Below, piece by piece: positions 673 to 58,603 of a stretch of 64,000 nt of DNA; the stretch's first letter is position 1; each line of letters starts with the position of its first letter. The stretch lies in the NCBI GenBank assembly GCA_965178125.1, contig OZ237747.1, positions 372,001 through 436,000 of the forward strand, in the 5' to 3' direction. Source of the stretch: Bilabrum cf. latius (lineage: Eukaryota). The notes under the pieces were generated by a model, which ran no database searches, was not told the DNA's origin, and saw nothing but the letters and a program-made list of their open reading frames with translations. The translations under genes and the position numbers were made by a program.

Positions 673-689
673 GGCGTAGCTCGTCCTCG

Positions 690-1272: not shown

Positions 1273-1391
1273 CGATGGACCCCCTTTGGGCTAGGGGTCC
1301 CCTTTTGTTGATGAGACACCCCCCCGTGCTCAACCCCTTGGCCGGGCGGGGTCCGCCGCCCATTTTCCATTTTCCGTTAGGTCATTTTGGG

Positions 1392-7930: not shown

Positions 7931-8020
7931 CGCAAGATACACAAAAACCTGAGTGGAATTGATGCAGCGGAACCTTGCATACTTGGATATGCGCGGCGCC
8001 GTGGTTCAGGCTCGTTGGAA

Positions 8021-10775: not shown

Positions 10776-13700
10776 ATGAGCCAGGCGCCTCTGATGGTCT
10801 CTGCATCAGCTAGTTCTAGTGAAAGAAGTCAGCTTGGTTCATCAAATGCAGCATTGGCTACTACTGCTGGCGAAGTATGCACTAGACAAAGGAGAACTTC
10901 GTCCACTGCGTCATAGTTCAAGTCATCTGTGATCTCACCGGGCGTCTCCGGGGACGGGATGATCGACGACGGCTCGGCGCTGAAGCGAGCAACCGGCAGC
11001 ACCAGCGGCACGATCGGCCAGGCAGGGGCTATGCTTCCCGCCGCCCCCGAGGGAGTGTCTGCTCAAGACCACAAGATCGAGTTGGCAAGCTCTGCAGCAT
11101 CTTCGCCGGCAGCTACTGCGGCCTTGCAGGAGCCTTCCACGCCAGAACCCAGCAAGGCCGCGCAGACTAGCCTTGAAATCCTGCGGTCGCCCGCTGAGCA
11201 GCTCCAGATCAGCCTCGATGCGGCCAGGACCACAATTTTCGAGGGTGGCTCGCTCCAAAAGATCCCGTTTAACAAGCCGGGGTACATCCACGCGCGGCAG
11301 TTCCAGGTGGTCATCGACCAGCATTACCGCGCAGTTGCCGCCAAGCGGGAGCAGGACAGGCTCGCCGCCATGAGGGCGCATGGGTGGGCCAGCCAACAGG
11401 AGGTAGAGGCGGCATTGGGCCCGGCCAAGCGCAGGCGAGTGGCCCCTAGGAGGCGAGACAGGGCCATGGTGCGGGCCGATACAGCCATGACCGCTGGAAT
11501 CCAGCGCGGTGAAGGGGGCTGGGAGACTCTATCGCTGACCTGGAGGGAGCCGCCCAAGGCAGGCGCATCCTTGCTGCCATTCAGCTCGAGCGGCACGAGA
11601 TCTGTGTGTCTACTGCAGGCAAGAGAGGTCGTGCTGGGCCACAAGACCCCTGCATTCCGAAGCCAGAAGGCGCGAGGCAATGACAGAGTGCCGCCGCCAG
11701 AGCAATGCCTGAGTCTCATGTGCGGCGACCGCACAGTGGATCTCGCGGTGAGCTTGCGTCCAGACCCATGCCCGCCCCGATCCGATTCCAACCGCGTGTA
11801 CGCGTCTGCTCACTATTTTGCTGGTTTTGCTTGCTTCCCATCTTCATTCCGTATCGCAGTGTAACTCCAAGCTAGAGCGCGACCTGTGGGCGAGAGGCCT
11901 TGCGTGGGCAATCCGGGAAGCCAGATGCATAGCCTACTATGGGCTGCCTCCAGTGGAATCCAGCAGCAGCGAGGAGTCAGAGCCAGAGCATAGGTCCAGC
12001 AAGAGAAGAGGCAAGGGGGGAGCTAGGCGGGTCATGTACGACGAGGATGGGGCAAGCGAGGCGGGCTCTTCCAGCAGTGATGATGGTGGTGACAGCGCGG
12101 GTGCCCGAGCATCCGGTCGCAAGCAATCGTCCAAGCGTCGGTCCTCGGCTGACCCCGGTCGGGGTAGAAAGCACACTGCCTCAAGGGCTCTAGAAGACGG
12201 ATTCAGCGAAGACAGCGAAAGCAGCAGCGAAGGGGCATCACCGGTCGGTCGAAAATCCTCATCGCGTGGCCCTGGAAAGACTGGTCGATCGTCTGCGCGA
12301 GGGTCCAAAGCACGTCTAGGTTCCAGCAGCAGGCGCGACACATCGGGGGCACGGGGCTCCAGAGGTACTCCTGCAAAGACACCCCGTGCCCCTCGTCCTG
12401 CGAGAGCGGTGCGAGATGCGTGGTTCCGCGCGGTGCGTGGAGGCAGGACGGGCAAAGTCCTCCAGCTGCTCAAGCAGCACCCTGGTCTACGGGAAACCGA
12501 GGAGAAGAGAACGAAGGACACGGCCCTGCTGCTCGCGTGTCGACTCGGTGCGGTGGACATGGTGGAGGCCCTGGTGAAGCAGCGGGCCAAGTACGACCCT
12601 CACCCCCTGCACGGACACTCGGCCGTGCATGCCGCGGCAGCGTGCGGCAGGGCCGAGTGTCTCGCTGCACTTCTGGAGACTGCGAGCGCGAGCGGGGCGG
12701 CCGGCCGTCTAGTGGACTCGATGTGCCTGGACGATTTCGGGTGCACTGCGCTGCACATGGCGTGTTCCCTGGGGGATGACGAGTGCGTTCGGGTCCTGCT
12801 TCAGTTCGAGGCCAGCTGGAAGCGGGCCAACGACCTGGGGAGGACCGCCCTCCACGCTCTGTCGGGCGGATGCGAGCGATCCACGAGAGTCGGCATGCCA
12901 GACTGCTGGCGAGGCGAGGAAGAGACGTCTCGTGGCTCTGTGGCAGCGCGCCGGTCGCTGGAGCTGGAAGCTGCTGGTATGGCCCCCTCAGGCAGCAGCG
13001 CAGTCCGGAGCATGGCAGCCCGCATCCCTGCCGAAGGCATGCCTCCACTCTCCCGCAGGCCAGCTCGCTACTCTGAGTGTCTCGAAGCCATATGGAAACA
13101 CACGCTCGCAGAAGCAATCGCGGAATCTGGCGTGGAGATGCAGTCGGGGGGGAGTGAGATGTCACAGACCCACCGCACGGAGCTTGCTGCAGCAGTGGCG
13201 CTGGGCCGAGATACGATCCGCAAAGAGCTTTCGCGCGGTGACGCCTTCGGAAGGACCCCTCTCCACTGGGCGGCAGCTCGCGGCATGAAGGGCCTAGTCG
13301 AGCTCATGCTGCGGATGAAGGCCTCTGCCATGCTGCTGGACGCGGGTGGTCGCTTGCCCAGTGCGATGGCGAGGGAGCAGGGGCACTCCGCGATCGAGAG
13401 ATTGCTTGCAAGCGCCGAGAGGGCGGCAGCAGCAGAGGGTGACCGGCAAGGTTACGCAAGCATCTGGAGCTAGGAGGAAGACGCCGCTGCAGTCGACAGT
13501 TCATCGAGGGAACCGTTCGACAACCTTGGTGCCGCAGGAGTTGGTCGAGCCCTTACTCCACGAGATGCGTCTTCCCTAGCTGGTGCTAGCAGTACAGTAG
13601 TTGGAGCGAAGTAGGCAGGAGTGGGAGCGGCGCAGGATTGGGGCCCGAGTACCGCTGCAGTCGCGCACACGGCCTCAGCCGCACCTCCGGTACCCGTACA

Positions 13701-16700
13701 CCAAGGCAGCTAGCAGTATGGTAGCTGGGCGGGGCAGCAGACGTACGGTGGGCAGTATGCCGGATATGATGCAAGCGGGCAATACATCCCGCAAGCTGGC
13801 TACCAGCAGTCATACGGTGGGTATTCGGGCACGCAAGCGTAGTACGGTACCGAAGGCCACCAGGGCATGAGCAGTCAGCAGTAGGCAGGCGAATACTCGT
13901 ACTACTACGACATGGCACAGGCGGCTGCCTTGCAGGCCGCTGAGGCACGAGCCGAAGAGTTTCGCCAGCAAGGCTTGAAGGCAGCCGTGTGGGTGCTCAT
14001 GTACGGCCCGGATGAAACCGGGACCATCCATCCGTACTACATGAACGCTGCCACAGGTGAGACATAGTGGGAGAGTCCTTACGAGCAGCCGGGTGGGAGC
14101 GCCGGGCAGGAGGTGTACACGGCAGAGGAGGTTGCGCATGGCTCGCTGCAGGCCGGGGACATGTCTGCATTCTTGCGTGCAGGGTACTCATTGGAAGAGG
14201 CAAACTATGCAGCGAGACAAGTGTCCTACCAGTATCCTGCAAATGCAGCGTCTGCCTAGTATCCAACGGGTACATCCCATGGGGCTTCCAGTCATGCCGC
14301 GAAGGTGCAACAGGCGTAGGGCGTTGCCACTCACCATCACAGTGCAGTGGCATTGCAACCTGCAGATGCTAGTGGTGGCAGAGCACCGCCAAAAATTAGC
14401 GTATAGCACGGTACAGAGTCCACAGCAGGTGCAGCGGGCCCGCAAACTCCGCCTTCAGACATAGACGACGATGACCAGTAGAGCGCGCCGGGCGTGCCGA
14501 ATGTGGGTGCAGCTGCAGCACCGAACCACGGATCCAGCCAACCGTTGCCTCCACCACAGGCTTCTTCTCAAATAGATGTGGGCAAAGTCAATTCGTCTAC
14601 CGGGGGGCACACCATCGATGAAGCAGCCAATGCGCCTGCCGTCCATCGCACAGCGCCAGGCACGGCTGGGTCAACAACGCCAAAGTCGGCGGCACTGCCG
14701 GCACATTCAGGTCAGCAGCAGCCGGTCGGTGCTGCAGAAGCAGGTGCCTCTCCGCCCCCTCCACCGCCTCCGCAGGGAAAGCAGAAACTGCCGAAGCCGA
14801 TGTCCCCATCCCCAATGAAGCCGTCTGCAGTCCGGGCGCGAACGGTTTATGGGCCGGCTGCGGAGTAGGAAACAGAATCATCGCGATCCCGCCCGTTGCC
14901 CCCATCGAGCATATCGGCCCAAGCGATGCAGGCTTCCGGAACCTTAGTCGATCCAAAGCCTAGCAAGGTTGAGCAGCAGGCCTCCAGCACGCCTGGGAAG
15001 CAGTCTTCAGACGTGCAATCAGTTCAGTCCCCGCCACCCACCATGGATGCCACGTGCATCAAGTACGCCAGAGTGAAGAGAATGGGCGTACCTCTTGCAG
15101 AGGTTCGCAAGCGCATGCAAATTGAAGCTGTCCCTGTGCAGGAGCAGCTGCGGATCCTCTGCTCGATTGCCACTGTCAAGGAATTGGAGGCTGCCGGGAT
15201 TCGCATCGGAGAGATCGCGGCCGGTGCTGCAGGATCAGCCTCGAGCAGCAAGCACGCCCAGGCCTAGGCAGCCTCAACACACTAGGCGCACGTTGTGGCA
15301 GCACCAGGTAGACCGGGACGACCAGGAAGGCCCGGACGGCCGGGTCGGCCATCTGCGAGCAGACCTGACCGTCCCACCGCAGGCCCGGTCCCTGGCCAAG
15401 CCGCTGCACGGCCAGCTGTACAGCCACCCAGGCCGGGCCCCGCAGCTGCCAGACCACGACCGGGGCCCCGCACACGTCCAGGTCCGAGACCTGGCCCGGG
15501 AGCGGCTAGGCCGGGCCCGAGGCCTGGACCACGGGCAGGCCCGGGCGCTCGCCCAAGGCCACGGCCACGGCCCCGGCCACGACCAAGGCCCCGCGCAGGT
15601 GGCGGTCGCCCCCGGCCGCGGGCGGGTCCCAGAACTGGGCCGACACCCGAGCAAGCCGCGGCCGCGCAGCGCCGCTCACGGTTGAAAACCCTCAAGCTGC
15701 ACTGGGACGTTCTTCCAGCGCATCGCTTGGCGAACAGCGTGTGGGCCGGAGATGTTGCCGAGGTGGGCCAGCAGGGCGTAGACGCGCTCGAGGAGGACGA
15801 AGTGCAGGCGCTTGCCTCCATGTTCAGCGCCAAACCCGCCGCGAAACCAAAGAAGAAGCGTCGCGCATCCCAGCGCAAGCCCAAAGCAGACGGCGCAGAG
15901 AGCGGCACGGACGCGGGCGGCTCTGGGTCCGAGTCCACCGGTCCCAAGCCAGGCTCTGTGGCCATGCTCGACCACAAGACTGCCAACAATTTGTCGATTG
16001 CTCTGTCTCAGTACAGGCGATTGGGCCCGCCCCAGAACATCATGAGGGCCGTGTGTCGCTCGGTTAAGGATGGCTCGTCGCCGGAGTCGAGAGACCCCGA
16101 GGATGACCCACTGGCGGCGCCTGCGCCTGGATCCAATGGCGCTGCGTCTGGTGCTGGCGCTGCTCCCGGCATCGCCTCCGAGGGCTCCATCTGCGAGCTG
16201 ACCTCGGAGCGACTGCAGAACCTGCTGGACAACATGCCCACACCGGAGGAGGCCGCAGGGTGCGGCGCGTACCCCGGCAACCCGCGCGACCTCCGGGGGC
16301 CCGAGAGGTTCTACTGGGCCGTGAGTCGGACTCCCAGGGCTAGAAGGAAGGTGGAGTGCGCCATGCTGACGAGACAGTTCCCCAATCTTGTGGCCAACGC
16401 AGAGAATCAGCTAGACGGAGTTGCGTAGGCGCATCGTGCTGTGAGTGGGAGTGATGCATTGCGGTAGGTCCTCAAGGCTGTGCTAGCCGTGGGAAACGCC
16501 ATGAATGAAGGGACGAGCAAAGGTGGTGCCAGCGGGTGCACGCTCGACTCTCTGCTGCGGCTAAGCTCAACCAAGGCGAGGGACAAGAAGACCACACTGC
16601 TCGACTACGTGTCCGAGGTGCTGGCAAGGCGGGTGAGGCGGAGGGGCAGCTCGAGAGACCTCATCCTGGGCACTGGGTCAGACAAGGAAGGAGACGCCGG

Positions 16701-17337
16701 AGAAACGACATCCACGGATGGCACGACTGGGAAGGCGGGTGCTGACGACACTGGATTCAGCTACGAGGGATTCTCGGAGCAGCTCGTGGCAGACATGAAG
16801 CCGGTCTCGGATGCGAGGCGGATCGTCCTGGGAGAGGCCGTGGCAGAAGTGAAGCGGCTGGTTCGTGGAGTCGAAGCTGCCAAGGCAGAAGTCGAAGCGC
16901 TCGAGAAAGAACAGGCTTAGGGTCGGGCAGCGCCAGGCGCAGTGGCCGTCGCCCCCTCTGCTCCGCTTGAGCCAGAAGACACCAGGGTGATGCTGCAGGG
17001 GCTTCGCGCATTCCTTACCACCGCTGGCCCGAAGGCAGAGCAGCTCAAGAAAGCGATGGAGGATGCTGAAGGCGCCGGCAAAGGTCTGGCTGATTTCTTC
17101 GGCGAGGACAGTGCTAAAGTGGGTCCGGATGAAGTGTGCACAATGCTGCAGACATTTGTGGATGCGTTCAGGGATGCTTCAAGGAAGGCCGCAAGCAGGT
17201 TAAGAGCGGGTGAGCATGGAACTGGGGCCTCCAAAGACAAGGGTGGGGCCGGTGCCGCGAAAGGTGGTGCTGACCGGGACCGCCGCAGGTCCACGAGAGG
17301 CCCGGCTGCCCTGCCACCCCGACTGCCGGGCACTTGA
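10776..17337 (+). CDS. Multidomain formin (~2149 aa): PH-like domain, ankyrin repeats, WW, Arg/Pro-rich FH1-like region, FH2
   Basis: Intron 11748..11859 joins DRTVDLA|CNSKLERDLWARGL (PH end). Ankyrin motifs TALHMAC and GRTPLHWAA. WW YYMNAATGET*WESP. FH2 motifs LKTLKLHW and VLAVGNAMNEGTSKGGASGCTLDSLLRLSSTKARDKKTTLLDYV. Exon 2 is a single frame interrupted only by TAG. Ends in TGA. Confidence 0.88.
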
Positions 17338-33395: not shown

Positions 33396-33526
33396 ACTGG
33401 AAAATGCAAGGGGAGTCGCTGCTAGGCTACGGAACCGACGCCGGCGGCCCGGCCACGCGGCGCCTTCCTGTTGCCAAGAAAACTTCGGATCAATTTTGCA
33501 AGTGTAGTTGACAACCTGCGGCTGTA

Positions 33527-36500
33527 ATGGCTGCACGCTTGTGCATAACTGCAATTATGGCAACCTGGGCTGCCACCCGATGGTACTCTTCAGTATCATC
33601 GGGTGGCAAGGTCCGCGGTACAACTAGTAGTAGCCGTGACGTGTCCGCTTCAAGACTTGGCAAGAATTCTCAAGGCCTCTCTGCGCACGACCTTGGGCTG
33701 AAGGATTTGCTTAGTGTGGTTATTAAGGCAGACAAAGACCAGTAGCAGTCACCGGCAATTTTATACGATTCAGGGACAGTTTGGTACGCTGCTGCAGCAT
33801 CACCTCTTTCTAGGGGGTTTCTTGACAGAAGATTATCGCGGCATGATCTACCAAAGCAACATCAATCAGCAACTTCAATCCAAAGTTATGGAAGCACGCA
33901 TCCTGGGTCGTCGCCAAGCTCCTCTGGCTTCCTCCCGGATAATACGTGGGTGGATTGCGCACAACCAGGAAGAAAACAGGCTTTCGAATTGAAGACAAAC
34001 GTAGACCAGCTTCAGACTAGCTTCATTAGAACAGCCGACATGGCTGCAGCGTGCAGAGTGGCGAAGTAGGGCGGATCCGGCGAGCCTGGCCCACCAATGT
34101 CGACGCCTGCGTCGGTGCCAGTGGCCGTAAACCCACTGGCTGCCCTTGGGGATTCACTCCATCGAAGCAATGCAGCTATACCGGATAGCGTACTGTGGGA
34201 TAACGAGCAGGAGAGTGGCCTCCACGAGAGGCACGACAACGCAACCGCCACCCCCCGCGGGTCCTCCCGAGCTGCGCACATGGCGCAGTGGGTCTTTGGC
34301 AGCCCTGACGCCGAAACCATGAGCTGTCTGCAGGATGTCAAAGCGAAGTACAAGTGCGATGCAATCGGCTGTGACGACCAGGTGCAGGGGTTCGTCAATT
34401 ACCTGGCCACGCACGAGTGCACGCTTGGCGGCGCAAGCCTGCAGTGGATTTCGTGGGTCTTCATGATCACATGGCTTCTGTATTTGCTTTACTTTTTAGG
34501 CGATACGGCGGACGAGTTCTTCTGCCCCGTGCTGGACCAGATCGTGATCGTCACTCACATGTCCCCCAACCTCGCGGGAGTCACCTTCCTGTCTTTGGGC
34601 AACGGAGCGCCCGACGCGGCTGCCTCCATCGCCGCCACTCTATCGGGGCAGCTGGACGTGGGCGTGAGCGCAGTGCTCGGTGCTGGTGTGTTCGTGACCA
34701 CGGTGGTGATTGCAATTGTCATACTGCAGGGCGAGGTGACCCTCAACCGGCGGCCCTTCCTGCGGGACACCATCTTCTGCCTGGTGTGCACTCTCTACTT
34801 GCTGGTCTGTTTCGCCGACCAAAAGGTTCGACTGGGCGAGGCGCTCGGGTTTTTGGGGATCTATATCGTGTTTGGTGCCGTGGTGGTGATTGGCCGTCAA
34901 GTGTACTAGGGCAGCAAGCAGCACGCAGACGGCGGACTGGAGGCACCGGCCATGGCGAGACTTGCAGGCGAAGGCGAAGTTGGAGTTGGAGACTAGACCA
35001 AAGCTGCCGCCCCGTGGCAAGCCACAGTAGCGGGTCTGCTCGTTCCCCTGGAAGCTAGTGGGGCCGCTGCACCGCGAGGCCCAGCGCGCAGCCGTGCCCT
35101 CTCGGACGAATGGATGGCCTCCGAACGAAAGACTGAGGTTGTTGCCCGCTTGCACCAAGCCGTTGAGGACCGCACGCTGGGACGTGGGCATGACGCGCGG
35201 CTAGACAGCAGCACTGGGAGCATGCGAGTGGGTACGAGGAGCCCCTTGCTTGCATAGGACAGCCTGTTAGGAGAAGCCGAGATGCAGATTGCGGGCGCAG
35301 GCGCTTTCGCTGACGACCCGGCAACGAATGCCACTGACCGGACACCAGACGCGGCTACAAGGATCCGCAGTGGAAGCATGGTAGAGCGGGGTGACGGCTC
35401 GAACGTACACGGTGCGGTTTCTTCTGCCATGTTTGGCCACCACGAGGCGCCCCGGGCCCATCTCGCCAGCCATGGGTCGGACGGCTACCACGGCCCCGAA
35501 GGCTATTTCCGCGCGCATGGTCGGCGCGCGCGCATGTGGATGCGATTCATCGTGGACCGGGACAGCGGCGCCATCGAGTACTCGCGCCAGGCCCGCTCCA
35601 GGATCGCGCAGAGGAGGAGCGAGCGGCCAGCTGCAGCCAGCGTGAACCTGGAGCTCTCCAAAAACCCTCCTTCGAGCCATACTGGGGCCCCGCTGCTTCC
35701 AGCTGCAGCTCCCGTAGAGTCTCTGGCTCAGGATAAGGCCGACATAGACGAGAACGAAGGCTTTTGCAATGTCATTTGTGGAGAGGATACGGTGCTAGGC
35801 AAGGTGCTGTTCGTGATCTTGTTCCCCAGCAATCTGCTCAGGCAGATCACCGTGCCCTTGCTGGACGAAGACAACTACGACTACCGCTTCGTGGCCCTGA
35901 CATCGCTCTTTGGGCTGCCTTTCATGGCTGCCGTGAGCTTCCAGACCGTAGGTGTGCACCTGCACAGGCTCGTGGAGCCTATCCTGCCGGGTGCACCTGC
36001 GGGGCTGTGCATGCTGCTAGTGCTCGGGCTCACTGGCCTAACCAAGAGCGTGGTTATGTTCTTTACGCTGCCGAGGAAGGAAGTCCCCTAGAGTGCCTGG
36101 GTGGTCGTGCCTCTCCTCATCTTTGGGTTCCTAACGAGCGTAAGCTGGATCATCTTGGTCGCAAACGAGATTGTGGGGCTGCTGGAGGTTCTCGGCCTGC
36201 TGCTCAAGGTGCCGACCAGCGTGCTGGGGCTCACCGTGCTGGCCTGGGGCAACTCGCTGGGCGACCTGATCGCAGACATGACCGTGGCCAAGGAGGGCAA
36301 GCCGGACATGGCCATCGCGGGTGCCATCGCAGGACCCGCTTTCAACGTTGTGGTCGGGCTCGGGCTGAGCCTGATCATTGGCGTGACAGACCGAATGGCT
36401 CAGCACGCCGAAGATCCGTCGATCAAGCCGTACATCGACCTGACGAACCCCGACAACACGACCCCGCTGCCCCAGGCGCAGATTCGGGTCGTGTGGACCC

Positions 36501-36670
36501 TTTTCGGTTTCTTCATCCTCAGCCTCATATCTCTCCTCCTCGTGGTGCCGCTGTCCAGTGACTCATCCTCCGGCAAGTACACCATGCCGAAGTGGTTCGC
36601 TTGGTACCAGCTTGGCTGCTACGCCGCCTTCATGGTGCTCGCATGCACCTTCACCTTCGTGGAATTCTGA
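33527..36670 (+). CDS. Cation/Ca2+ exchanger (CCX/NCLX-like, CaCA superfamily)
   Basis: Alpha-1 repeat AGVTFLSLGNGAPD and alpha-2 repeat LGLTVLAWGNSLGD, with multiple TM helices. Single frame from ATG 33527 with TAGs including 33743, 34067, 34907 and 36089. Ends in TGA. Confidence 0.9.
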
Positions 36671-40972: not shown

Positions 40973-43446
40973 TCACGCCTGCTTGCCCTCTCCCGCATCC
41001 GCGGCCTTGATCTTGTCGATCACCTCCACGGCGGCCTTGGGGATCCGCGTCCCTGGCCCGAACACGGACGCCACACCGTGGTCGTACAGGAACTGGTAGT
41101 CATCAGGCGGGATCACTCCGCCGGCGATCACCACGATGTGCTCGCCGCCCATCTGCTTGAGGCACTCCACCAGCTGCGGGATGAGCGTCTTGTGCCCCGC
41201 CGCCTGGGAAGAGATCCCCACGGCGTGCACGTCGGCATCGATGGCCTGCTGCGCCACCTCCTCGGGCGTCTAGAAGAGCGGGCCCACGTCCACGTCAAAG
41301 CCCATGTCGGCAAACCCGCTGGCGATCACCTTGGCCCCCCGGTCGTGCCCGTCCTGGCCCATCTTTGCGACCAAAATGCGCGGCCGCCGACCCATGTCCT
41401 CCACGAACCGGTCCACCGCACTCGTCACGGCGTCCATCTCGTGCGCGGCGGACGAATCGGTTCCGAATTCCTGCTTGTAGGCCCCTTGCACGACCCCGTC
41501 CTTGAGCACGTGCCTGCCCCACACGGCCTCCAGAGCGTCCGAGATCTCGCCCACGGTGGCCCTGGCCCTCGCTGCCTCCACAGCCAGGGCCAGCATGTTC
41601 ATCGGGTGCTTGCCGCTGCCAGTCGACTCGGTCACCTTTGCCGACTCGGTGAGCTTGGCCAGCGCGGCATCCACCGCCGCCTGGTCTCTCTCTCCCCTCA
41701 CCTTCTCCAGCCTGGCTGTCTGCCCCTTCCTCACTGCCGTGTTGTCCACGTGCAGCACGTCCACCTTCTCGGGGTTCTCCACCACGTACTTGTTGACGCC
41801 CACGATCACTTCCTGCCCCGAGTCGATCCTCGCCTGCTTCCTCGCCGCGCTCTCCTCGATCCTGAGCTTTGGCATCCCCGAGTCGATGGCCTTGGCCATG
41901 CCTCCCAGCTCGTCAATCTCCTCGATGATGCCCCTCGCCTTGTCCACAAGGTCGTTCGTCAGGGACTCCATCATGTAAGAGCCCCCCCACGGGTCCACCA
42001 CCTTGGTGATGCCCGTCTCCTCCTGGATCATCAACTGCGTGTTGCGGGCGATCCGCGCCGAGAACTCAGTGGGCAGGCCCAGGGCCTCATCGAACGAGTT
42101 GGTGTGCAGGGACTGCGTGCCTCCCATGACAGCGGCCATCGCCTCCACCGCCGTCCTCACCACGTTGTTGTAGGGGTCCTGCTCCGTGAGAGAGTACCCC
42201 GAGGTCTGGCAATGGGTCCGCAGCAGCCAGCTCTTGGGATCCTTTGCGCCCACCTTATCCCGGAGGAGCTCGGCCCAGAGGGTGCGGGCCGCCCTCAGCT
42301 TGGCCACCTCCATGTAGAAGTTCATCCCGATCGCGAAGAAGAAGGAGAAACGCTTGGCCACAGAGTCCACGTCCAGACCCGCCTTTTGAGCGCACTGCAC
42401 GTACTCGATACCATCTGCCAGGGTGAACGCCAGCTCGAGAGCTGCGTCGGCCCCCGCCTCCTGCATGTGGTATCCAGAGATGGAGATGCTGTTGAAGCGG
42501 GGCATGTGCTCCGCCGTGTACCCGAAGATGTCCGAGATGAGCCTCAGGGATCCTTGCGGGGGATAGATGAAGGTGTTGCGCACCATGAATTCCTTCAAAA
42601 TGTCGTTCTGCACTGTGCCTGTGAGCGCCTCCTGAGAGACCCCTTGCTCCTCGGCCGCCACGATGTACATGGCCATGACGGGCAGGATGGCGCCGTTCAT
42701 CGTCATGGAAACGCTCATCTTGTCCAGTGGGATCCCGTCGAAGAGGATCTTCATGTCCTCCACCGAGTCGATCGGCACTCCGGCCATGCCCACGTCTCCC
42801 TGCACCCTCGGGTGGTCCGAGTCGTACCCCCGGTGCGTCGCCAGGTCGAAGGCCACAGAGAGGCCCTGCTGGCCTGCCGCGAGGTTCTTGCGGTAGAAGG
42901 CGTTGCTCTCCTCGGCCGTTGAAAAGCCCGCATACTGCCGGATCGTCCACGGGCGGTACGTGTACATCGTGGCGCGAGGACCACGGGTGTACGGAAAGTG
43001 CCCACTCAGCTACGACACCGATAGATCCTGCGATGCAACGGAGAGAGCAGATGTAGCAGCCGACAAGTCGGGCGGAAATTCTATGAACGCAGTGTTTTCG
43101 TATTATTCTGAGCACCCTGAGGCCAGCCAAGGCAAAAACAGGCACGTGTGCGCTGCCACATCACCGCATGATCACACCAGCGCAAGACGCGCAACTGCTA
43201 TATTCTGCTTACCTTTGTATCATCCTCTGTGTAAATTGGCTTGATATCTATTCCCTCTGGCGTTCTCCAGACGAGGTCGTCAGCAGACTTCTTGCCACGA
43301 AGCTCCTTATCTGCCAGCTCCTGCCATTCCTTGGGGAGCTCCATGCTAGACATTCTGGGAGAAGCAGTGGAAAACACGCGCCTTGTGCAAGAGAGACCAT
43401 AAAGTCGTCTGCTCAATCGCCTGGATTGCCGCATCATGCTTTGCAT
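40973..43446 (-). CDS. MUT: Mitochondrial methylmalonyl-CoA mutase (B12-dependent)
   Basis: Motifs [31 protein letters not shown]12-binding GQDGHDRG and GPLF*TPEEVA. Arg/Ser-rich transit peptide. Intron 43028..43212. TAG at 43010 and 41270. Ends in TGA. Confidence 0.96.
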
Positions 43447-47442: not shown

Positions 47443-48850
47443 GCGATCAATGCTTGAGCACGTTTTGCGCAAACAAGTCAACAAGATATGCGCTCAAAAT
47501 TCTGTCGCTTCGGCCCTGCTGGTCACTATGCTGTGAACGAGACGACTGAGGTGGCGCGCACGCCAATCGTCACTGCAGGCAGCATCGCGGCAAGGTGCAT
47601 ATCAATCATTTCTTGAGATCAGCGCGGGCAGATATGGCCATTTCGCAATAAGGCACCGTCTCGTGTCGTGGATAGCAGTTGTAAGTAGGCGCTGGGATGG
47701 GGTGGGTTGAGGTAGCTCGCGGTGCGGCCGCTAGCGTGGTCCGCCGCATTACGGTGCACGCATCGCAGCTCATAGTCTTTCGAACCTCAATCCAGACTCG
47801 CGTAGCTAATCATCATAGAATGTAAGGTAGATTCAAATGCCTGCAAGCGCTACCTTGCCCTTGAGGTGCACCTAAGTGTGCCCGCGTTGAGGTTGTCCAC
47901 TGGCAGGCGTAGCGGATGAGGGGTCTGCCGCGCAATGCGTTTCGGCAGTATGAGTGCGGGATTATCGGTGTTACTTCATAATAAAACTATCGATTTCGAC
48001 AGTGTTTCGCCCCTTTCCAGGTTTTACTTGCGTGAGACGCGTCCAGAATTGGGAACCGGTAGCTTGGAACTGCTACCCCTCCGAGGAGTCCACCCTTGAC
48101 CCAAGCAAGTGCTCACTGAGTACGGTTGCCTCTGTATAAACTCTTCGCCTCAAAAATGCTGGTCCGCTGTCCTTACGTCACGTGTCAATATAACTATAAA
48201 TACTTTTGCTGCACTGCCATGGTCAGGTGATGCGTGTGTGGCACGTAGCACGGCCGTCAAAATCAACGAGAGTGGCCGGCCGAAATAACCATTTCAACCC
48301 AAAATGCACGGACATATCAGAAATCTTACCAATCTAAATGGTTATCACGTAGTAAAAAGAGTATGCAACAAAATGATTGTAGGTGGTCCGCGCCTGGGGG
48401 GCCGGTACACCTCTTGGTGTGATACATATTTTCGACATCGGCTGGAGACCAAAACTACACGCAACATTGTCTGATTTCTCAACCCAAAGTTGGGACAAAC
48501 TTTGAACCGGATTACTCGTGTTATTTGGTGTACTCTACACTCTATATCAAAGTTTGAGAATTAAGTTGCATTCAAAAAGTTCTGCACGTTGAAATTGCTG
48601 TAAGTTATCATCTGGTAAAGCTTCTGGAGCAGCCATCCTTTTGTGTGTAAAGAAAAAGTACCGAGGAGCATACAGAGGTCGAATAGAAGCTAGCAACCGT
48701 ACGTATATTGCTCAATATGGTATACACGTAAAGTTTGGCTTGCTATTCAACGCATCTCGCAGGGTTGCCTACGACCTGTACTCAACACCCACAGCTGCTC
48801 AAAACTTGGAAGTCTACGGACCATCCTTAACCTGAAGCACCCCATAGGCA

Positions 48851-51800
48851 ATGGATAAAACTCCAACTGCAAGAACTACATCGCGCACAGCTACCGGGCG
48901 ATCCGCTAGCAATGCTGGTGCAAACTCTGGCAAGCTCTCTGGGGGTCGACGGAGGCACCAAGGCTCTTGGCGAGGCATTCTGTACGCATCGGGCATTCTG
49001 GGGCCGGTCAATGCTTTGACTGTGAACCGATGCTGTGAAGTGGGGTTGGAGCCACCGGAGTGTCTCCCCCCAAGGCTTCCGCCAGCAGTACCGCAGGAGT
49101 CTGCGGGACACTTGGTCCGTGCGCGGGTGGTCGCAAGGGCCAGCCAGGATCCGGCCCACTTGAGCAGCGACATTGCCATGTTCCGCCTCCCACACCACGA
49201 ATCACATGTCTCACTGGGCCGGCTGCCTGACCCTGTTGATCCCCCATGCATCCGGTTCGACCCTTCGGAAGGCAGTGCGGGTGCAAGGGCGCACAACGCA
49301 GCTGTGTTCCAGAGCTACGGCGTGAAATACGGCTAGCAGGCGGCCCAGGCCCAGGCATCGGCTGCCAGCTCATCGTACACGGAGTGGATGGTGCGTCCGC
49401 CGCCCACACGGCTTTAGCTGGAGAGCCGAGGCAGGGCAGGGACTGGAGCCGGCAAGAAGCGCGCTAGGCAGGGGCATTCTGCCGCCTGGTCCAAGGGCCC
49501 AAGCAGCGACACGGTGCAGCTGCCCGTGCTGCCCCCGGGGCTGAGGTACGCCATCGATGCGGTTTACGCTGAGCAGGCTTGGCTGCGGCTGGGTCCTCCG
49601 AGACAGGAAGTGCTTGCCGCGATGGACGCTCAGGCGAAAGCAGCGGCACGCCGCGGGCCCAAACACTCCCCTGGGGTGGACCTGGGCCGACTGAATAGAA
49701 TGCTGGACGACGACACCTTGGACCTGCTGGAAGATGACATCGATGACGCTGCATACGATGCTCATGCCGAGGCGCGCGGGGGCGATCCGAGCGGTGCCAA
49801 GGATACAGCCGGCCTCGATTCCGCGGAAACGGACGAGGAGTTCGATGACAGGATCAAAGATCGGCTGGCGAGGTTTTGGGAGCGCGGTGTGGGTCCTTTC
49901 TTCGCCCCATTGTGCTTTGGAGTGCTGCAGCCGATCGTGTGGCATGCGAGGCGAGGTGCCAGGTCGGGGCAACCAGCCGGGGCCGCGAGCAGCAATTGGC
50001 AGTATGCTTAGCAAAGCAGTCTGAATGACGTGCTGCTGGCGAGTCGGTGCGAGGAACCCTGTCCGTGGCTGGGACCTGATGCACCAGAAGACGATGAGGG
50101 TGCAGCAGGCGGTGGCTCTGGTCCCGGCGACAGGCTGAGCTGGGACGATCCTGCCTCCATTGCAGCGGGGTGCCTAGTGCCGTTCGTTGGTGATCCTGTG
50201 CGGCCGCGCAGTGCACCTGAGTGGGACACCCCCTTCAGGGGTACTCCTTCGAGCAGCAGCAGCGCAGTCGCTCGCAAGCTGGACGGACACGGCAGCCAGT
50301 CTCACGAGGATTGGCCCCCTGCCTGGCTGAGTGACACTCCCCTCGAGGACGGGCAGCCAGTGGCGGGCTCGTTCGCGGGAGTGGTGAGGCAGGGCATCGC
50401 TCGGGTGTTGATGCAGCGGAGGGGGCGCGCAGGCGTGGCTGCGTTCAGGGTGACTGCGCGTCGGGAGGGTGCCTCACAGAACGGATCCAGTGCAGCTGAG
50501 CTGCTTTGGTGGAAGCCCCTTGTGCCAGACGTTTGGGCACTGCGCACGTCGCCCGAGGATGGGGGTGCAGATGACTGCGAGGCGGATGACGATACGGTAG
50601 ACCAGACCGAGGATGAGGCGTATGAACAAGCAAAGGACGAGAATGAGGACGAGGACGAGGACGAGGACGAAGATGCAACCAGCTAGCCATCAAGAGCTAG
50701 GACTGTGGCCCCTAGCACGGCCAAGTCGGGGCGGCAGAGCGCTCGCAAGCGCTAGAGCCGCACGCCAAATCCGCGCACGCCGACTGTCCCGACTAGAGAA
50801 CCGAGGTCGCGCCGCGCCGCCGCGGCGTTCTCGACCGGGACGCAAACCGATGGCAAGGAGCGTGCAAGCGGGTCTGTGAACCTGAGCTATGACTCGTCTC
50901 CCCTGTCCCTTGAGCTTGCAACGCTGCTTGCTCGGCTGGATACCCTGCAGAAAAGCAACGATGCCATGTGCAGGGAGGTTCTCGAGCGGGTGCATGCCTC
51001 CGGTGAGGCCAGGTATGCGCGATCGAATGTGGGCTGTGGAATGCCCGAGGTCGAGACGGCCCCGCAGGATCCGGTGGAAAAGCTCTTGGAAAGCAAGTGG
51101 CCCGACCACAGGTACTCGCCGTACGCCACCGCTGGTGGCTTGCCGTTGCCGCCGTCGCTGCCCCAGTCGTACCTGAATCGGTACGCATGGGAGCCTAGCC
51201 GCGGTGCAAGCGGTTCGACTCCACCTCTACCTGCCCGACCTGACCCTTGCTGGGCCGCGGAGCAGCGCGACGGCCTTGAGATGGAGGAGCTCGGCAGGCC
51301 ACGCAAGCGAGTCGGGGCGCCGATTCCCTGGCTACCACGCAATCTCATGTGGGAGCTGGCGATGGAGCGGGAGTGGCTGAACTGCGAGTCTTGGCTGCTT
51401 GCTCGATCTAGCATATTTAGGGGCGTACGGGATCGCGTTGGCGGGTTTAACAAGAGGCGGGCGGAGATCGTGCCGGCCAGCTGGGCCATCCGCACTGAGG
51501 GCAGGCCCACAGCGGAGCAGCTCGCTGCGAAAGCAGCGGGCAAACCGAAGCAAGGCCAGGACTCCTCTGGTGCAGATTCGTCAAAATCGAAGCCGGGTCT
51601 CAGCTTTGCGGCTCCGGGCCTGGCGAGCGATGAGGCTGTGAATCGAGCGGCTGAAATGGCCGCAGGCTTGGCTGTGCATAGTCGGTCCGGCTTGGCGCAC
51701 AGGGGCGGGAAGCCTGGCATGCCGCTGGCCGAGGCCCTTGACGAAGGCAGGCAGGTAGTTGCGGGTCTGAAAGACGGTGATGAGCTTGCATCCGCGGAGC

Positions 51801-54800
51801 CACATGTTGCCAACGCTGTGTGGGGGTTCCGAAAGGTCATGACAGACGCGAGCAATAAGAGAAGTGGTGGAGCTATCGGTGGCAGGGCCACTGGCACCAG
51901 TGGTGATGCAGAAGCAGGCGATGGCAACGGGAGCGGGGTCGTGAACTCTCGGGACGAAGGAGAAGACGACGTAGTGTGTAACGTCTGTTTCGATGGCAAG
52001 TCCTCGCCCAAGAACCAAGTCGTGATGTGCGACCGGTGCGACGTCGCAGTACACGCGGCGTGCTACGGAGTTGCTGAAATCCCCGACGGACCATGGCTGT
52101 GCGACGTGTGCCGAGAGGCAAAGCGAGCGCAGCATCTCTCGGGAGGAGGACCGGTGGGTAAGGCGCGCGCCGCTGCCGAAGTGCTGCTGGCCAGATGCTG
52201 CCTGTGTGAGTCGCGAGGCGGTGCGCTAAAGCTCACAGCGGACGGCAGATACGTCCATCCCATCTGTGCCATAACTTCGCAAGGCGTATGGATCGACGAC
52301 TTCTCCGAAATGAGTGGGATTGTGGCTCACAGTAGCGCCTCCGCCACAGTCAGGCGTGCGAGGCTGGCAAGCAGCGGACAGGCTCGCTCGTTTGCTAGGT
52401 ATGGATTTCGGTGCCGCTCCCCGGGCCACGTGCTGCGTCTGCTAAACGCCTCCCACAGCGCTCAGGCGGACCCAGGATCATTGTCACAGCATGTATCGGG
52501 TGCGTGCGTATCTACAGATGAAATGGGGGCGGCACTGAATTCGCCGATATGGACATATTCGTGTGGAGTGCTGCTGGGAGCAGGCGGCAAGAAGGCTGTA
52601 GAGGAGGTCCTCGCTCCAGATGATCACGAGATGAACCGAGATGCCAAATACATGAAGCAGAGAGCTATTGCCTACGCGCTTGCGCCTCCGGCACTGCCGG
52701 CGCAGCGGATGCTGACTGGGCAGGAGCTCATGGAAGGATCGAATGCGAGACCGCTCATCGAGACGCTTGGCGAGGGATAGAAGAGATCGAGAAGCGGTTC
52801 CTTGTCTCACGCCGTTCATACCGCCTCCAGAAGCAGCGCCCAGGCGACGAAGCAGTCTCATAGGCCTAAGAAAAGCAAGCAGGTGCCATCCAGTAGCCAC
52901 AATGGGGCATCTTAGCAGGCCCCGTCGCCAGCAAGCACCCCAAGCTAGAGCTCGCAGACAGTGGCGCAGCAGCGACTGTGGAAGGTTGTTTCCGAAGAGC
53001 CTATTGGGCTGGATATATTTCACCCTGAAGGAGCCTTGCAGCGACTGGTGCCTAGATGGCTCAAGCTCGACGACGATTCCGCGACCGGAACCATCCCAAA
53101 GGTCTCGGAGTCGCAGGCTATCACGATGGCCCGCGGCGGCCAACGCATTGGGATGCGGTACTCGTTTCCTAGCGAGGCCGTGAGCAAGTCGTCGGAGTAC
53201 TACCAGGGCTTGGAGCATGATGGTCCCTACTTCACGCTCGGTATGGACGAGATGAAAAAGTTTTCCGCGTGGCACCCCCCTCGCCGTTTCTTTGCAAAGG
53301 TCATGTTTGTGTTCCACAGGGATGAGGACGATGCGAAGGCGCGGTAGGAGAGGCTCGATCAGGTCGCGGCCGAGTCTGGCATCGCTGCCATGACCGGGGT
53401 GCCCACTAGTTTGGCCAAGAAGGAGCTTAAGGCGGTGGATCAAAAAGCTGACGGGAGCACATCGCTTCCAGTGAAGCCTGCATCGGTGTCAGGGTGCCCA
53501 AAGACCGTCCGCTTGGTGTTTCGCGTTCCGCCAAAGCATGTTGCTTCGACTATGCATATGGCGTGCAGGCAGAGGCCAGAGCAGGATGATATTCATGCCA
53601 ATGTCACCAGAGTAAGGCTGAAGCTCAACCGTGTGTTGCCGGATGTTCGCGCCGAGCAATCCTCAGCGCTTGCCAGCACTCCATCTGGGCGAGGGAGAGG
53701 GGGTCCCAGGTCAGCAGGAGCCGGGCATGGCGGTCGCTCAGATTTTGTGCTGCCGGACTCTTCTTTAGGCAGCAGCAAGCTGCAAAACGAAGGGACCTCC
53801 CTTGCTCGTGCATTCCGCAGCAAAATGCCCCAGCCCAGCCAGGAATAGCTTCAATTGAGGCGCAAGGAGGGATCTCTCGTCCGTCCACAGCGCGGTCTTG
53901 GGACGCACGAGCTCGTCCTGGCGCGCAAGCATAGTCGGTGCGAGCTGTGTGGCAGCTGCGAAGGCAGCATTGTTCTCGCATCTAGGGGAGGCCAGCCCGC
54001 ATCAGCGCCTGTGCATCTGCTGTGTGCTTGGCTGCACGGCTGGTACATCCGCTCTGGACCCATGTATCCGTCCCCAACCGTGTGTCCTGGGCTGCCGAAG
54101 CCGTGGTCCGACCCGAGGACGGACCTGGTAGGGAAGGTGGATAAGTTTTGGAGAATTGTAGGGCAGCCTCGACTGCCAAGAGTACCGCCAGCTTCCCAGA
54201 TGGAAGACGTCGTATTCCCTGGCGGCGGGAGTGGGCTTGCGCTGCAGGTGCTTGCACCGGCCAGTTCGGCTCAGTCCCAAACTCTGGCCAACCAGCAAGC
54301 TCTGATTCGAAGGGCGTACTTTCACAAGCCCAAAGAAGTTTGGATGCTGTACGCCGCTCGAAGAGATCACCTCAAGACCTCTGCAGCGCGTGCAGCATAG
54401 GCCATCGCGGATGCTCTGCATATGTAGCGCGTGCCTGTGCACAGTGTGCCGAGCATGAGCAAAGCATCATTGAGCGCCGCACCGTTATCATTTGCAGAAG
54501 ATTCGGTTGCGCCCAAAAAGTCCAAAGCGGTGACTCCGTCTGGCAGAGGCAAAACCAAGGCCGGTGGAAGGCCGAGTGGATCGGCTGCGTCTCACACGAA
54601 GCAAACGAAGCAAACGAAGCAATCAAAGCCGTAGAAAGCTAGCGAGCAGCAAAGAACTACCAAACAGGCAAGGAAATCATCAGAACGCGACCAGCATGCA
54701 GCAACCTCTCGGGCTGTGCCCGATGATGGGGAGCGAATCAATAAGCTTTTGCTCGGCGACCCCCGGCCGTAGCCGAGGTGGCTTTCGCAACCTGCATCCG

Positions 54801-57800
54801 CTGGCGCTTACTTGCTCTCCACGACTGCCATCAAAGATATCGCTGATGCAACCGATAGCGTGCCCGCTGCCGCCGTGCAGGCGCTAGGCGAGGCTCGCGG
54901 CACTCTCTTTGCACTGCGATTGCAGCTAGAGCAGGCACACAGGATGATGGAGCTTGTCGAGTACAGGGAGCGGCTGCGGATGGCATCTTTGGTCAATGAC
55001 GATCTCTGGTTTAATGAAAGCATCGATCGGGAGATCCACTTGGCTGGCGGTTAGGGTAGTCCCAGCAGCAGTAGCGGCAGCAGCCCCAGCAACAGTAGCA
55101 GCAGCAGCCCCAGCAGCAGTAGCAGCAGCAGCCCCAGCAGCAGCCCCAGCGGCAATAGCAGCAGCAGCCTCAGCGGCAGCAAGAGGAGCAGCACTACCAG
55201 CGGCGGTCAGAACGGCGAAAGCGAACTCGGACTCACTGTCCGTGTGTGCCCACCGCGTCATGTGCACCGACGGATCGCGGCATCTCGAGCGCCATCCGAT
55301 GCTGCGAGTGCCACTCTAGGCCGGCGGTCAAGCCCGGCGGAGTGTCAATCTGCCATCCAGTCGTACATGCAGTCGCGTTCTAGTGCGCTTCATGGTCTCA
55401 AGCACGCACTTGGGTCTCCCGTGCTTCGCCGGGCGCGCGATTCTCAGTCCTGGCGATATCCAGACCAGGACCGCTTGCCGGTGGGACCTGAAGCCGTGGT
55501 GCAAGCTGTAGGACAACGCGGAGTTGCGCTGCGATAGGTTGACCGCAACGATTCTGTAGGTGCTCCCAAGGATGCGGCCGGTCGGTCGGCTCCGTCTGGG
55601 ATGCAGGCGATGCTAGACGAGTCCGATGGCGAAGACGGTGGCGATACCGATGACAGCTCTGACGTTGACGAAGGTACTGCCTTCACCAGAGCACCGCTGC
55701 TCGCACTTGATGCTGAGCTCGCTGTAGCAAAGGATCTGGATCGCGATCGTGCTCTGGGCCATCCACTAGAATGGCCCCTCCATTAGGCTGGCGCAACGTT
55801 GGGGAAGTACCGTACAGATCGTCACGTCCGTCCGTCTGGTTTCGATCCAGCCGACTTCCGGACTTGGGCTCGCGAGGGATAGGTACGAGCTTCTCTTAGT
55901 CGGCTGCCGCGCTGGATACAACCGGCTTCATCGCTTCCTAGCGAGCAGAGCGCATCGGAGTATACCGTTGACGCTCACAAGACCCGAATGGCTGCTATGG
56001 GAGCTGCTTCGACTCGATAGGCTGCCATCGTGAATGCAGAGAACGAACGAGTGCCTGCGATGGGCTCGAACCCCGCCGCCGGCAGCACTTCAGCAGCTTG
56101 GGCCGGTTCAGGCGGAAATGGAAAGTCCAAGCCACCAAGGTTCGCAGGCGGCATCTGCATCGGGCCGCGCTCCTTCTCAGGGATCCCAAAGGGGCATGAT
56201 GAAGCATTGCCTTCGCACGATGATGTCCCCTTTGGTAGCGCCTTCGAGCAGCTGGGCAGCTAGCATGCCACGTTGGAGGCTGCGTTGGAGTCTTTGAAGC
56301 CTAGGTCGCAGGTTTCCTCAGCCAGCAGCAGCAAAAGCAGCAGTAGCAGCAGCAGCAGTAGCAGCAATGGTGCACAAGCAAAGAAGCCCAAGCGGCCCAA
56401 AGCCAGCGCCATGTGGGACGGGCCTCTACCTGACAGACATTTCACCCTGGAGCATGACGTGCTGGGAGCGGTGCGGCCCCATGTGGGGCCGACTAGCGGC
56501 TGCCAGCTCGTGTAGATGCCACGTTCCTTCGAGCAGCATGCGATCGCGACCAGCAAGCTTACCAAAGAGTAGCTTGCGAGCGAGGCCAGGGCTGCTCTGC
56601 TCATTGCTGCTATCGTGGACCTATACGACCCTGCAGCCGCTGCCATGCATTGCATCAGACGCAATTCGGTGGAGGTTGATGAGGCAGCCATGGCAAGCAA
56701 CCAAGTGACAGGCACCTCTGTGGGTGATGATGTCGCCGATGAGGCTGTTTGCAAACTGTTTCGGCTGCCCAAGATGGACGAATCGTTTGAGAGCTTGTCG
56801 GTGCCGAGCAAACGAGCCGCCGCGATCGTTGTCGGGGCATCCTACATGCTGGAGATGCCGTGCATTCCTGAACTTGAAGACGACTACTAGAGAAGGGTGT
56901 GCGACAGGAATCCGCTGGGGCAGGCTGCGTGGGTGCATGTGCCTCCTGGTCGGATGCCAGTGTACGAGCTGTGCCTGCAAGAGGCCAACACATCCAAATC
57001 GAACGACCCTTGGGACAGGCCGCCGCTCTAGTCCTTTGGCTCGCTGGTCCAGAGGCTGCAACTGCATGGACTCACGGACTTCGACGCCACTCACGAGCAG
57101 ATGTAGTTTTCTCTGCATGCAGTGAAGGACGCGACCCCGGTGAAGCATCCAGTGCACCGAGCGGCCTACATTGCAATTTCATCGTTCAAGCACGCCGAGG
57201 ATCGTACCGCTCATATGGCCGAAAGCTCCTCGCATAGCAGCTTCAACGCGTATGCTCGTCCCGGGTCTGAAGAGGCCATTTCAGCCAGTCTGGTGACGAA
57301 GCACTCGAGTAGGAGACAAGACTCCATGGCGGGCGCGGCATCGCCGCGGAAAACTGGCGCCGGAGCAATGCAGCGTGGACCACCCGGCGATACCTGGGAG
57401 TCAACCGGTGGATCAGCTGCATCTGCTACGAGTGGAAGCGAAAGCCCGCGGCAGCGCGGCAGCGGGTAGGCTGCAGCGGTCGGGACCCCGAAAGGGTACT
57501 CTGAGCTTGTCGGGGAGCAGGTACAAATTGGGAAGCGATACATCTGGAGCAAAAAGGTGCTTGCTCAGCTAGAGAGCATGGAGCGAAGCAAGGAGGCTTC
57601 AGCTGCGATGGTTCGAGCGTGTCTCGATGCCGGTTGGCCCAGACTAGATGGAGATCTGAGAGGGCTGTGCACGAAGCAAACGGAGGCCTCGAGGGCTGCG
57701 CTGCTGCAGGCCTCCAAGGGATTGTCATAGTCAGGCGGTGTAGGCTTGCTCTTTGCCAAGTGCAGTTGCTGCAGTTGCGTGTACTCTCTGGATGCACTGA

Positions 57801-58603
57801 GGGACGCCAACTCGTTCTACGGGTCACCTTAGGCCAAGCACACCCAGTGCTACCTCCAGGCCATGGGCCGGCTGCAGAACTCCTACTTTGACATCAGGAA
57901 CGAATCTGTGCAATGCAAGGCTCAGATAGATCCGAAGGTTGACGTGCTGCAGCACAGCGGCACGGATCGCATCCTCGGCGCGCCTTCAGAAGATAGCCTG
58001 CCCGGCCACTCTGCCCCCGGCGATGCCAGCCTAGTGATGTACCTGCAGCCGCTGTCGCCGGCATTGTCGCAGGAGTCTCCCGAGTCCGTGGTCATGTATG
58101 GTCTGCTGTCTTGCAACGACACATTCGTTTAGCACGCATGCAATGCTGGAGCGGCTCCCGAATCGTCGAGTGCGAGTGGCAGCTCTGGCAGCGGCGACAG
58201 CGAGTCCCTCGTGTGGCACAGGGACTGGGTGTGCCCGGCCTGTATTCACGGGCAGGGCCAGCAAATGGAAGGCAAGACCTTCTGGCTGCGGTCCGGCACG
58301 TACGGGATGCGGTGGCTGAAGGCGACCGCGTCGTAGTTTGAGGAGAGGAGCAGAACACACAGGTTATGGGTCGAGGTACCAGCCGATGCAATTGGGCACA
58401 CATCGCACGAGGATCGATCGCATGCGAGCGCAAGCAGTGCAAGTGGGGGCGATAGTGTCTCCAATGCAGCAACATCTGCCAGCAAACCCGACCGGCCAAT
58501 TGGAATGCTGGCTGTTGCTGCCGAGCGCGGCTGGAGTGGATTCTGGGACGTGCTAGACCTCTCCATGGTAGACGCCGTGTGGGACAGCGACAGCATTGCA
58601 TGA
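48851..58603 (+). CDS. Giant single-exon (3250 aa) BRPF/JADE/NTO1-like PHD (PZP) chromatin scaffold protein
   Basis: Continuous 9753-nt frame with ~29 TAG by my count and no TAA/TGA until 58601. PHD CNVC..MCDRC..VHAACYG....PWLCDVC, knuckle CCLC..RGGALK.T.DGRYVHPICA and the LRLQLEQAHRMMELVEYRERLR helix. Confidence 0.82.
55058..55182 (+). repeat. Coding Ser-rich imperfect repeat (agcagcagcccc / agcagt units)
   Basis: Repeated ccccagcagcagtagcagcagcag units in the frame of the PHD gene. Confidence 0.75.

Follow-up and report, generated by a model that had tools for sequence, protein, structure and literature searches.

Can a gene that carries a TAG codon in the middle of a conserved domain still encode a full-length protein, and if so, which amino acid does the codon specify? 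This question was raised by the methylmalonyl-CoA mutase (MUT) gene in a 64,000-nucleotide stretch (G000:C13:372001-436000, here called the window) of a eukaryotic assembly of 48.6 Mb in 111 contigs. On the minus strand, the region of positions 41270 to 41272 reads CCG CTC TTC TAG ACG CCC GAG GAG in the frame of MUT, and an earlier note, made without database searches, had taken the TAG to stand for glutamine. We find that UAG is very probably an ordinary third glutamine codon of this nuclear genome, with UGA (preferred) and UAA as the stops, which corresponds to NCBI translation table 15.

The MUT gene is intact and not decaying. Its product has both the PF01642 (763.5 bits) and the PF02310 (B12-binding; 62 bits) domains, the DxHxxG sequence, which we take to be the cobalamin motif of MUT, and an intact C terminus, and it aligns without gaps to residues 590 to 730 of human MUT in solved-structure alignments. 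PF02310 lies at about 41042 to 41380 on exon 2, and its placement agrees with the minus-strand letters in putting the TAG in frame within the B12-binding domain, as the earlier note had it. Downstream of the TAG there are 98 sense codons and then TGA, close to the approximately 99 intact and conserved codons described before, and the protein matches 34 of the 34 columns that are at least 90% conserved in this part. The identity between the query and its homologues downstream of the TAG (0.666) equals that among the homologues themselves (0.666); upstream, the values are 0.736 and 0.732. No relaxed selection was seen downstream at the amino acid level, and the claim that the gene is not a pseudogene stands. 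The N terminus is rich in Arg and Ser and looks like a mitochondrial presequence.

The TAG is present in four runs from three studies. Contigs of runs X5, X6, and X7 (three samples from two studies) were taken as RNA since they skip GT-AG introns; these spliced contigs cover the TAG with 0 differing letters, and a contig of run X1 covers it in unspliced form. Because the spliced contigs keep the TAG, it is exonic, reproducible, and unedited in the assembled consensus. A pseudogene, an intron, or editing at this site is thus ruled out by the downstream constraint together with the unchanged spliced contigs. Another in-frame TAG, absent from the earlier note, lies at 43010 to 43012 in a column that has Q in 37, a gap in 18, D in 17, S in 13, and E in 12 of 120 homologues; Cafeteria has Q.

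The column of the TAG at 41270 to 41272 is not the near-invariant glutamine that had been claimed. The earlier note had proposed an orthologue alignment as the check, with a variable column speaking against its reading, and the column is variable: the 120 closest homologues have Q in 57, S in 52, A in 6, R in 3, L in 1, and N in 1. It is Q in Cafeteria, Platysulcus, and Blastocystis and S in Pythium, Hondaea, Mucochytrium, and Nannochloropsis, and in the four best solved-structure alignments it is Q (human, two sequences), A, and S. When different residues are placed at the TAG, the Pfam model scores 67.5 bits for Q, 66.5 for S, 65.5 for L, 65.2 for E, and 64.9 for Y, a spread of less than 3 bits. 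By itself, the site would speak against E, L, and Y, and it cannot separate Q from S. It was dropped as a diagnostic site for this reason, and the meaning of TAG had to be drawn from other genes. There, in the dyneins, the Ras GTPases, and eRF1, the preference for Gln over Glu, Leu, or Tyr holds, but not as a proof from MUT.

Across the genome, TAG is found as a sense codon. When TAG alone is read through, the window yields frames of 3255, 1861, 1315, and 1191 codons, and the other five frames across the longest of them have 3 to 10 TAA and 30 to 70 TGA each. Stops occur inside 12 of the 28 dynein AAA_6 matches, and all 20 of these stops are TAG, with no TAA or TGA; within 65 Ras family matches, there are 48 TAG, 2 TGA, and 1 TAA. 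Eighteen of the 19 dynein 10-kb stretches hold one frame of about 3270 to 3330 codons, and the 19 main frames have 271 TAG codons together. PRP8 has just 3. We then took a 404-kb sample made up of the window, its flanks, the dyneins, PRP8, and eight 10-kb stretches chosen blind on eight contigs. TAG is present in 58 of its 60 non-overlapping frames of at least 500 codons; with 605 TAG, 3924 CAG, and 858 CAA, it makes up about 11% of the glutamine codons. The two TAG-free frames, neither with a Pfam match, are probably antisense shadows. The share of TAG tracks that of CAA (Spearman, 0.68) and drops with the guanine-plus-cytosine (GC) content of third codon positions (−0.64), so TAG behaves as a rare synonymous codon. 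The same reasoning was applied to the other two stops. TAA was rejected as a sense codon, as its read-through in the window gives next to no gain in frame length and opens nothing new. TGA was also rejected, since its read-through frames are mid-sized (up to 1299 codons) and overlap genes of other frames, and since it is missing from the dynein matches.

Conserved columns point to glutamine as the meaning of TAG. The 19 dyneins were aligned either with 269 homologues or with the 40 best homologues per gene. In columns at least 90% conserved among the 269 homologues, TAG falls at Q in 15 of 17 cases (one E and one V), compared with 173 of 187 for CAG and 21 of 23 for CAA. With the top-40 set, 28 conserved columns have a TAG, 22 at Q, 5 at E, and 1 at V, and none of the 28 is at Y, W, S, or L. 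Over 173 dynein TAG sites, Q alone has a positive mean log-odds (+1.09), and the next residue is E at −0.88; the values for CAG are +1.33 and −1.02. A pass with 120 homologues put TAG at Q in 30 and at E in 8 of 48 columns and CAG at Q in 346 of 532. The glutamine of the Ras peptide motif DTAG-Q, which we presume to be standard for the family and which the paralogues of this genome bear out, is encoded by TAG in 8 genes and by CAG or CAA in 13 when counted by eye, and in 4 and 8 by a stricter script. At position 44 of eRF1, a TAG stands where 89 of 94 homologues have Q. These sites are spread through ordinary genes, and they indicate glutamine and not tyrosine, leucine, tryptophan, serine, or pyrrolysine, for which no such pattern was encountered.

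Genes end at the other two codons. Cysteine prenylation tails at the end of Ras proteins fall into the classes CC, CxC, CCx, and CaaX, and we used them as end marks at 30 Ras loci, with a script that reads through TAG. Such a tail was found at 20 of the 30 loci, with TGA directly after it at 16 of them and TAA at 4; none of these 20 motif-marked ends has the motif directly before TAG. In the 404-kb sample, 40 long frames are closed at the end, 32 by TGA and 8 by TAA, with some of these ends being intron edges. MUT ends with TGA, and eRF1 ends with TAA.

The genome carries a single copy of a gene for a tRNA with anticodon CUA (G000:C23:907607-907679, minus strand), with a full cloverleaf and a T run after the gene. 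Its Rfam score of 69.8 bits is the second best of 48 matches, obtained from the 63 of 780 candidates that were scored. ARAGORN labels it "Pyl," which appears to derive from the anticodon alone. A search pattern that permits a TTA anticodon, but that intron-containing tRNAs would escape, gave 65 matches, none of them a nuclear tRNA-UUA. Among 31 further distinct nuclear tRNA sequences compared with it slot by slot, the one most like tRNA-CUA is tRNA-Tyr(GUA), at 48 of 70 places (acceptor, 12 of 15; same 5-nucleotide variable loop), followed by Gln(CUG) and Glu(CUC), each with 41, and Gln(UUG), with 40; Trp (36 of 70) and Asp (32 of 70) are distant. It is plausible that tRNA-CUA is a Tyr-derived tRNA remodeled to glutamine. 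This is only a lead, because 21 of 385 unrelated tRNA pairs also reach 48 of 70 and the His, Leu, and Glu(UUC) genes lie outside the compared set. The tRNA has a Gln/Glu-type D stem and differs from tRNA-Tyr by G73 in place of A73 and by G2:C71 in place of U2:A71; it also carries U35 and G10, and its D arm equals that of tRNA-Glu(CUC) at 16 of 19 places, with C38 in both. C1:G72 and A73 are given as eukaryotic tyrosine identity elements; U35, the 10-25 pair, acceptor pairs, and the discriminator are given as glutamine identity elements in Escherichia coli; and several amber suppressors are said to accept glutamine (PMC9976931). The gene for glutaminyl-tRNA synthetase (GlnRS) was located as well (L161); it has 751 codons and no TAG.

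Two further observations were made on the tRNA set. Both recovered nuclear tRNA-Ile genes (L009 and L044, on G000:C32 and C4) have the anticodon GAT; AAT is the usual tRNA-Ile anticodon in eukaryotes. A multicopy family with anticodon CAT (L023, L036, L040, and L047 to L049) has a body like that of tRNA-Pro(TGG), at 49 to 52 of 70 places, and candidates for it are an initiator tRNA, another remodeled tRNA, or a tRNA-derived repeat.

The eRF1 gene (G000:C35) has two TAGs in the part encoding the N domain, so the synthesis of eRF1 itself needs UAG reading. We compared the protein, in human numbering and with exon joins taken from the alignment, with the 95 full-length homologues among 118 (fragments of less than 395 amino acids were left out). 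It differs from most of them by G29A (G in 84 of 87), N30D (N in 79 of 87, D in none), S60V (S in 89 of 93), a TAG at position 69 (L in 89, Q in 6), N129S (N in 91, S in 4), and K130H (H in none). T32, S33, E55, NIKS, S70, Y125, C127, and F131 are unchanged. L69 and N129 have been linked to recognition of the third-position G, and N30A was without effect in yeast (PMC4381064). T32 contacts the third-position G; eRF1 has T32G in Iotanema, where the present organism keeps T32, and L69A in the rhizarian exLh (PMC5304391). The accessible text of PMC12440015 has no passage on the positions at issue. Among metagenome sequences, the eRF1 fragment P0399 (JGI) is 88% identical to that of this organism, which shows that a related species is present in metagenomes. 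P0402, P0404, and P0405 have Q69 and S129 in common and might, judging by these residues, mark relatives with the same code.

The sequence shows TAG in frame across the genome and at glutamine columns, kept in spliced mRNA, and never at an identifiable gene end, together with a tRNA-CUA gene and unusual residues in the N domain of eRF1. We propose that GlnRS would charge tRNA-CUA with glutamine through U35, G2:C71, G10, and G73 and that this tRNA would decode UAG and not UAA. eRF1 may have lost most of its hold on the third-position G via L69Q and N129S/K130H, with a possible part for S60V and G29A/N30D; the residues listed above as unchanged are retained. Ribosomes would then insert glutamine at 41270 to 41272 and make full-length MUT. 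Several points weigh against this account. The case for glutamine comes from nucleic acid sequence and not from the protein level. tRNA-CUA is nearer to tRNA-Tyr(GUA) than to the Gln tRNAs and keeps C1:G72, and only the codon columns speak for its glutamine identity. eRF1 keeps T32, L69Q is also found in 6 of the 95 homologues, N30A was null in yeast, and the eRF1 exon joins come from alignment and not from RNA. The gene-end test has 20 motif-marked ends, leaving room for rare TAG stops. The RNA status of X5 to X7 is a guess from their skipped introns, and rare variants are lost in assembled contigs.

One more such point is an excess of TAG at glutamate columns, 5 E to 22 Q compared with 14 to 318 for CAG plus CAA (top-40 set; Fisher p = 0.009 at 90% conservation and p = 0.0008 at 75%), with examples such as WMYL(TAG)PIF and LFA(TAG)GF. 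It would fit an ambiguous UAG, read mostly as glutamine and partly as glutamate, in which the Glu-like D arm and C38 let both GlnRS and glutamyl-tRNA synthetase charge tRNA-CUA; 16 of 19 D-arm places and C38 are indeed shared with tRNA-Glu(CUC), and in the Ras gene L086 two consecutive TAG codons occupy the Q-E pair of DTAGQE. However, with 269 homologues the excess is not significant (p = 0.37 and 0.056), the mean glutamate log-odds at TAG falls between those of CAG (−1.02) and CAA (−0.68), and CAA alone leans the same way (4 E to 31 Q). As CAA tilts to glutamate columns too, we read the excess as recent Glu-to-Gln changes, which would be rich in TAG since GAG to TAG is a single substitution. 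We therefore regard dual charging as very improbable. A slightly smaller chance still is given to a context-dependent UAG that means glutamine within genes and stop at some gene ends. The retained T32, as a contact of the third-position G (PMC5304391), could let some UAG termination persist, but TAG follows 0 of the 20 prenylation tails, and neither MUT nor eRF1 ends with it. The least credible idea, which we consider already refuted, combines a MUT-specific accident under the standard code (a nonsense mutation, sequencing error, intron, or editing) with other meanings of TAG (Ser, Tyr, Leu, Trp, or pyrrolysine). The MUT column does tolerate serine (52 of 120), tRNA-Tyr is nearest to tRNA-CUA, and ARAGORN offers its "Pyl" label. 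Against these stand hundreds of TAGs in intact genes on many contigs, the exonic, unedited MUT TAG in all four runs, and the absence of Y, W, S, and L from the 28 conserved dynein TAG columns.

UAG as a plain glutamine codon is thus strongly preferred. A fuller history, in which every part would have to hold at once, is offered more tentatively, and we think it possible but rather less likely than its failure in at least one part. It would make this the first nuclear stop reassignment in a stramenopile, in a GC-rich, TGA-preferring genome. The tRNA would descend not from tRNA-Gln but from a tRNA-Tyr(GUA) duplicate in which G34 changed to C and which was remodeled to glutamine by A73 to G, U2:A71 to G2:C71, and a Gln/Glu-type D stem. 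eRF1 would have lost UAG through L69, N129/K130, and S60 with T32 kept and two UAGs in its own gene.

The features of the window are listed in Table 1.

Table 1. Features of the MUT gene and of other TAG-containing frames in the window
Feature	Position	Strand	Basis or remark
In-frame TAG read as Gln, PLF-Q-TPEE, MUT B12-binding domain	41270..41272	-	Homologue alignment and spliced contigs
Second in-frame exonic TAG, MUT exon 2 codon 6, variable column	43010..43012	-	Homologue alignment
MUT exon 2, domains PF01642 and PF02310	40973..43027	-	Terminal TGA at 40973-40975
MUT intron, 185 nt, GT..AG, ends GTAAGCAG...CATCGCAG	43028..43212	-	Joint in X5, X6, and X7 contigs
MUT exon 1, first ATG at 43446	43213..43446	-	X7 contig extends to 43457
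PHD-finger protein frame, 3255 codons, 31 TAG, 0 TAA, 0 TGA	48836..58603	+	Frame scan, Pfam
Ankyrin and FH2 formin frame, 1861 codons, 16 TAG, end TGA	11752..17337	+	Frame scan, Pfam
Na/Ca exchanger frame, 1052 codons, 6 TAG, end TGA	33512..36670	+	Frame scan, Pfam
WD40 protein frame, 3 TAG, end TAA	36708..38837	+	Frame scan, Pfam
GH31 frame, 8 TAG, end TAA	58766..61180	-	Frame scan, Pfam

Just upstream of the window (L054, positions 2 to 9307 of G000:C13:362001-372000), a 3101-codon frame with 37 TAG encodes a family-B DNA polymerase with a C4 zinc finger, presumably Pol zeta-like. Within the window, a 791-codon plus-strand frame at 7916 to 10291 has 6 TAG and no Pfam match. Its Cys/His and RH..GDL..IDVTV motifs recall, as we presume, the endonuclease end of a non-LTR (long terminal repeat) retrotransposon, and if it is a retrotransposon, it would be a mobile element fitted to the code of its host. 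A near-identical direct repeat (196 nucleotides at 99% and 50 nucleotides at 98%) occupies 413 to 672 and 1392 to 1639, where the start of the 1315-codon gene is copied about 970 bases upstream.

The window has a GC content of about 60%, and the homologues are rich in stramenopiles, with Cafeteria as the nearest named organism. The dynein tree (FastTree, 36 rows), the sole gene tree that places the query, makes it sister to a clade with Cafeteria with a Shimodaira-Hasegawa-like support of 100; a MUT tree (44 rows, the top 29 matches plus named ones) gave no firm placement. The identity to Cafeteria is moderate (69% for eRF1, the best named match, and 78% for the MUT cluster), which indicates a distinct lineage, probably a bicosoecid.

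Two other contigs of the assembly differ in kind. G000:C111 (L050 to L053) is a 38.4-kb mitochondrial contig with in-frame TGA and a tRNA-UCA, a code unlike the nuclear one. TGA there would encode tryptophan, as reported for Cafileria and Cafeteria, and TAG shows no sign of coding use on this contig. The 17.9-kb contig G000:C95 (L056, 1501 to 3302; L147) has a second 18S rRNA gene of 1802 nucleotides with low-complexity flanks. It is only 77 to 83% identical to the tandem 1700-nucleotide 18S array on C12, is probably from a contaminant or prey, and looks diatom-like, as far as we can presume.

UAG-only glutamine codes are known from the ciliates Hartmannula sinica, Trochilia petrani, and Protocruzia tuzeti and from the fornicate Iotanema spirale (PMC11687900), a gut flagellate with a UAG=Gln code (PMC5304391), and codes that split UAA from UAG are called rare (PMC11687900). 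In nearly all codes, the two codons have one meaning in common. The present system shares with them a UAG that means glutamine, is decoupled from UAA, and shows no sign of stop use, but it belongs to a stramenopile, in another supergroup. The suppressor tRNA went undetected in both H. sinica and T. petrani, and UAA is the dominant stop in phyllopharyngean ciliates (PMC11687900); the tRNA-CUA of Iotanema is only predicted. Here, in contrast, the cognate gene is in hand, and TGA is the main stop (16 to 4 in Ras tails and 32 to 8 in long frames) at about 60% GC. Codes of table 6 (UAR=Gln), as in many ciliates, hexamitid diplomonads, ulvophytes, Streblomastix, and Amoeboaphelidium (PMC11687900), likewise read TAG as glutamine via tRNA-CUA, whereas in the present genome TAA is missing from the long frames and serves as the stop of eRF1 and of 4 of 20 Ras genes, and the tRNA search yielded no tRNA-UUA. 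The UAG=Leu codes described for the rhizarian exLh and for phyllopharyngean metagenome-assembled genomes from TARA also decouple UAG from UAA, and position 69 of eRF1 is altered in exLh as well; they differ in the amino acid, and our tRNA has a short 5-nucleotide variable loop and no Leu-type long arm.

The closest named genome is that of Cafeteria roenbergensis/burkhardae. Its mitochondria likewise read UGA as tryptophan, its eRF1 has the usual G29, N30, S60, L69, and N129, unlike that of the present organism, and the accessible part of the Cafeteria paper names a nonstandard code for the mitochondria only. A nuclear stop reassignment in a stramenopile was not reported in the literature searched, in the available text of PMC6723347, PMC6972860, PMC11412368, and PMC12220804 among others, although subscription papers and supplements lay mostly outside the search, so that a report may exist. 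The same was found for the accessible parts of PMC12153298, PMC13524828, PMC13768787, and PMC12574857. The code is rare but already known; the lineage is new for it, and this is apparently the first case in its supergroup.

The finding adds an independent origin of a UAG-only glutamine code in another supergroup, the stramenopiles. As the genome is GC rich and prefers TGA, AT pressure cannot account for the change of code. The assembly is contiguous and shows the tRNA-CUA, present once, as well as the altered N domain of eRF1, with the standard-code Cafeteria at hand for comparison. This opens a direct test of how eRF1 halts at UAA and UGA yet passes UAG, and it has a bearing on amber-codon engineering in eukaryotes. 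For this genome, and for related metagenome bins, most long genes come out truncated when annotation uses the standard code.

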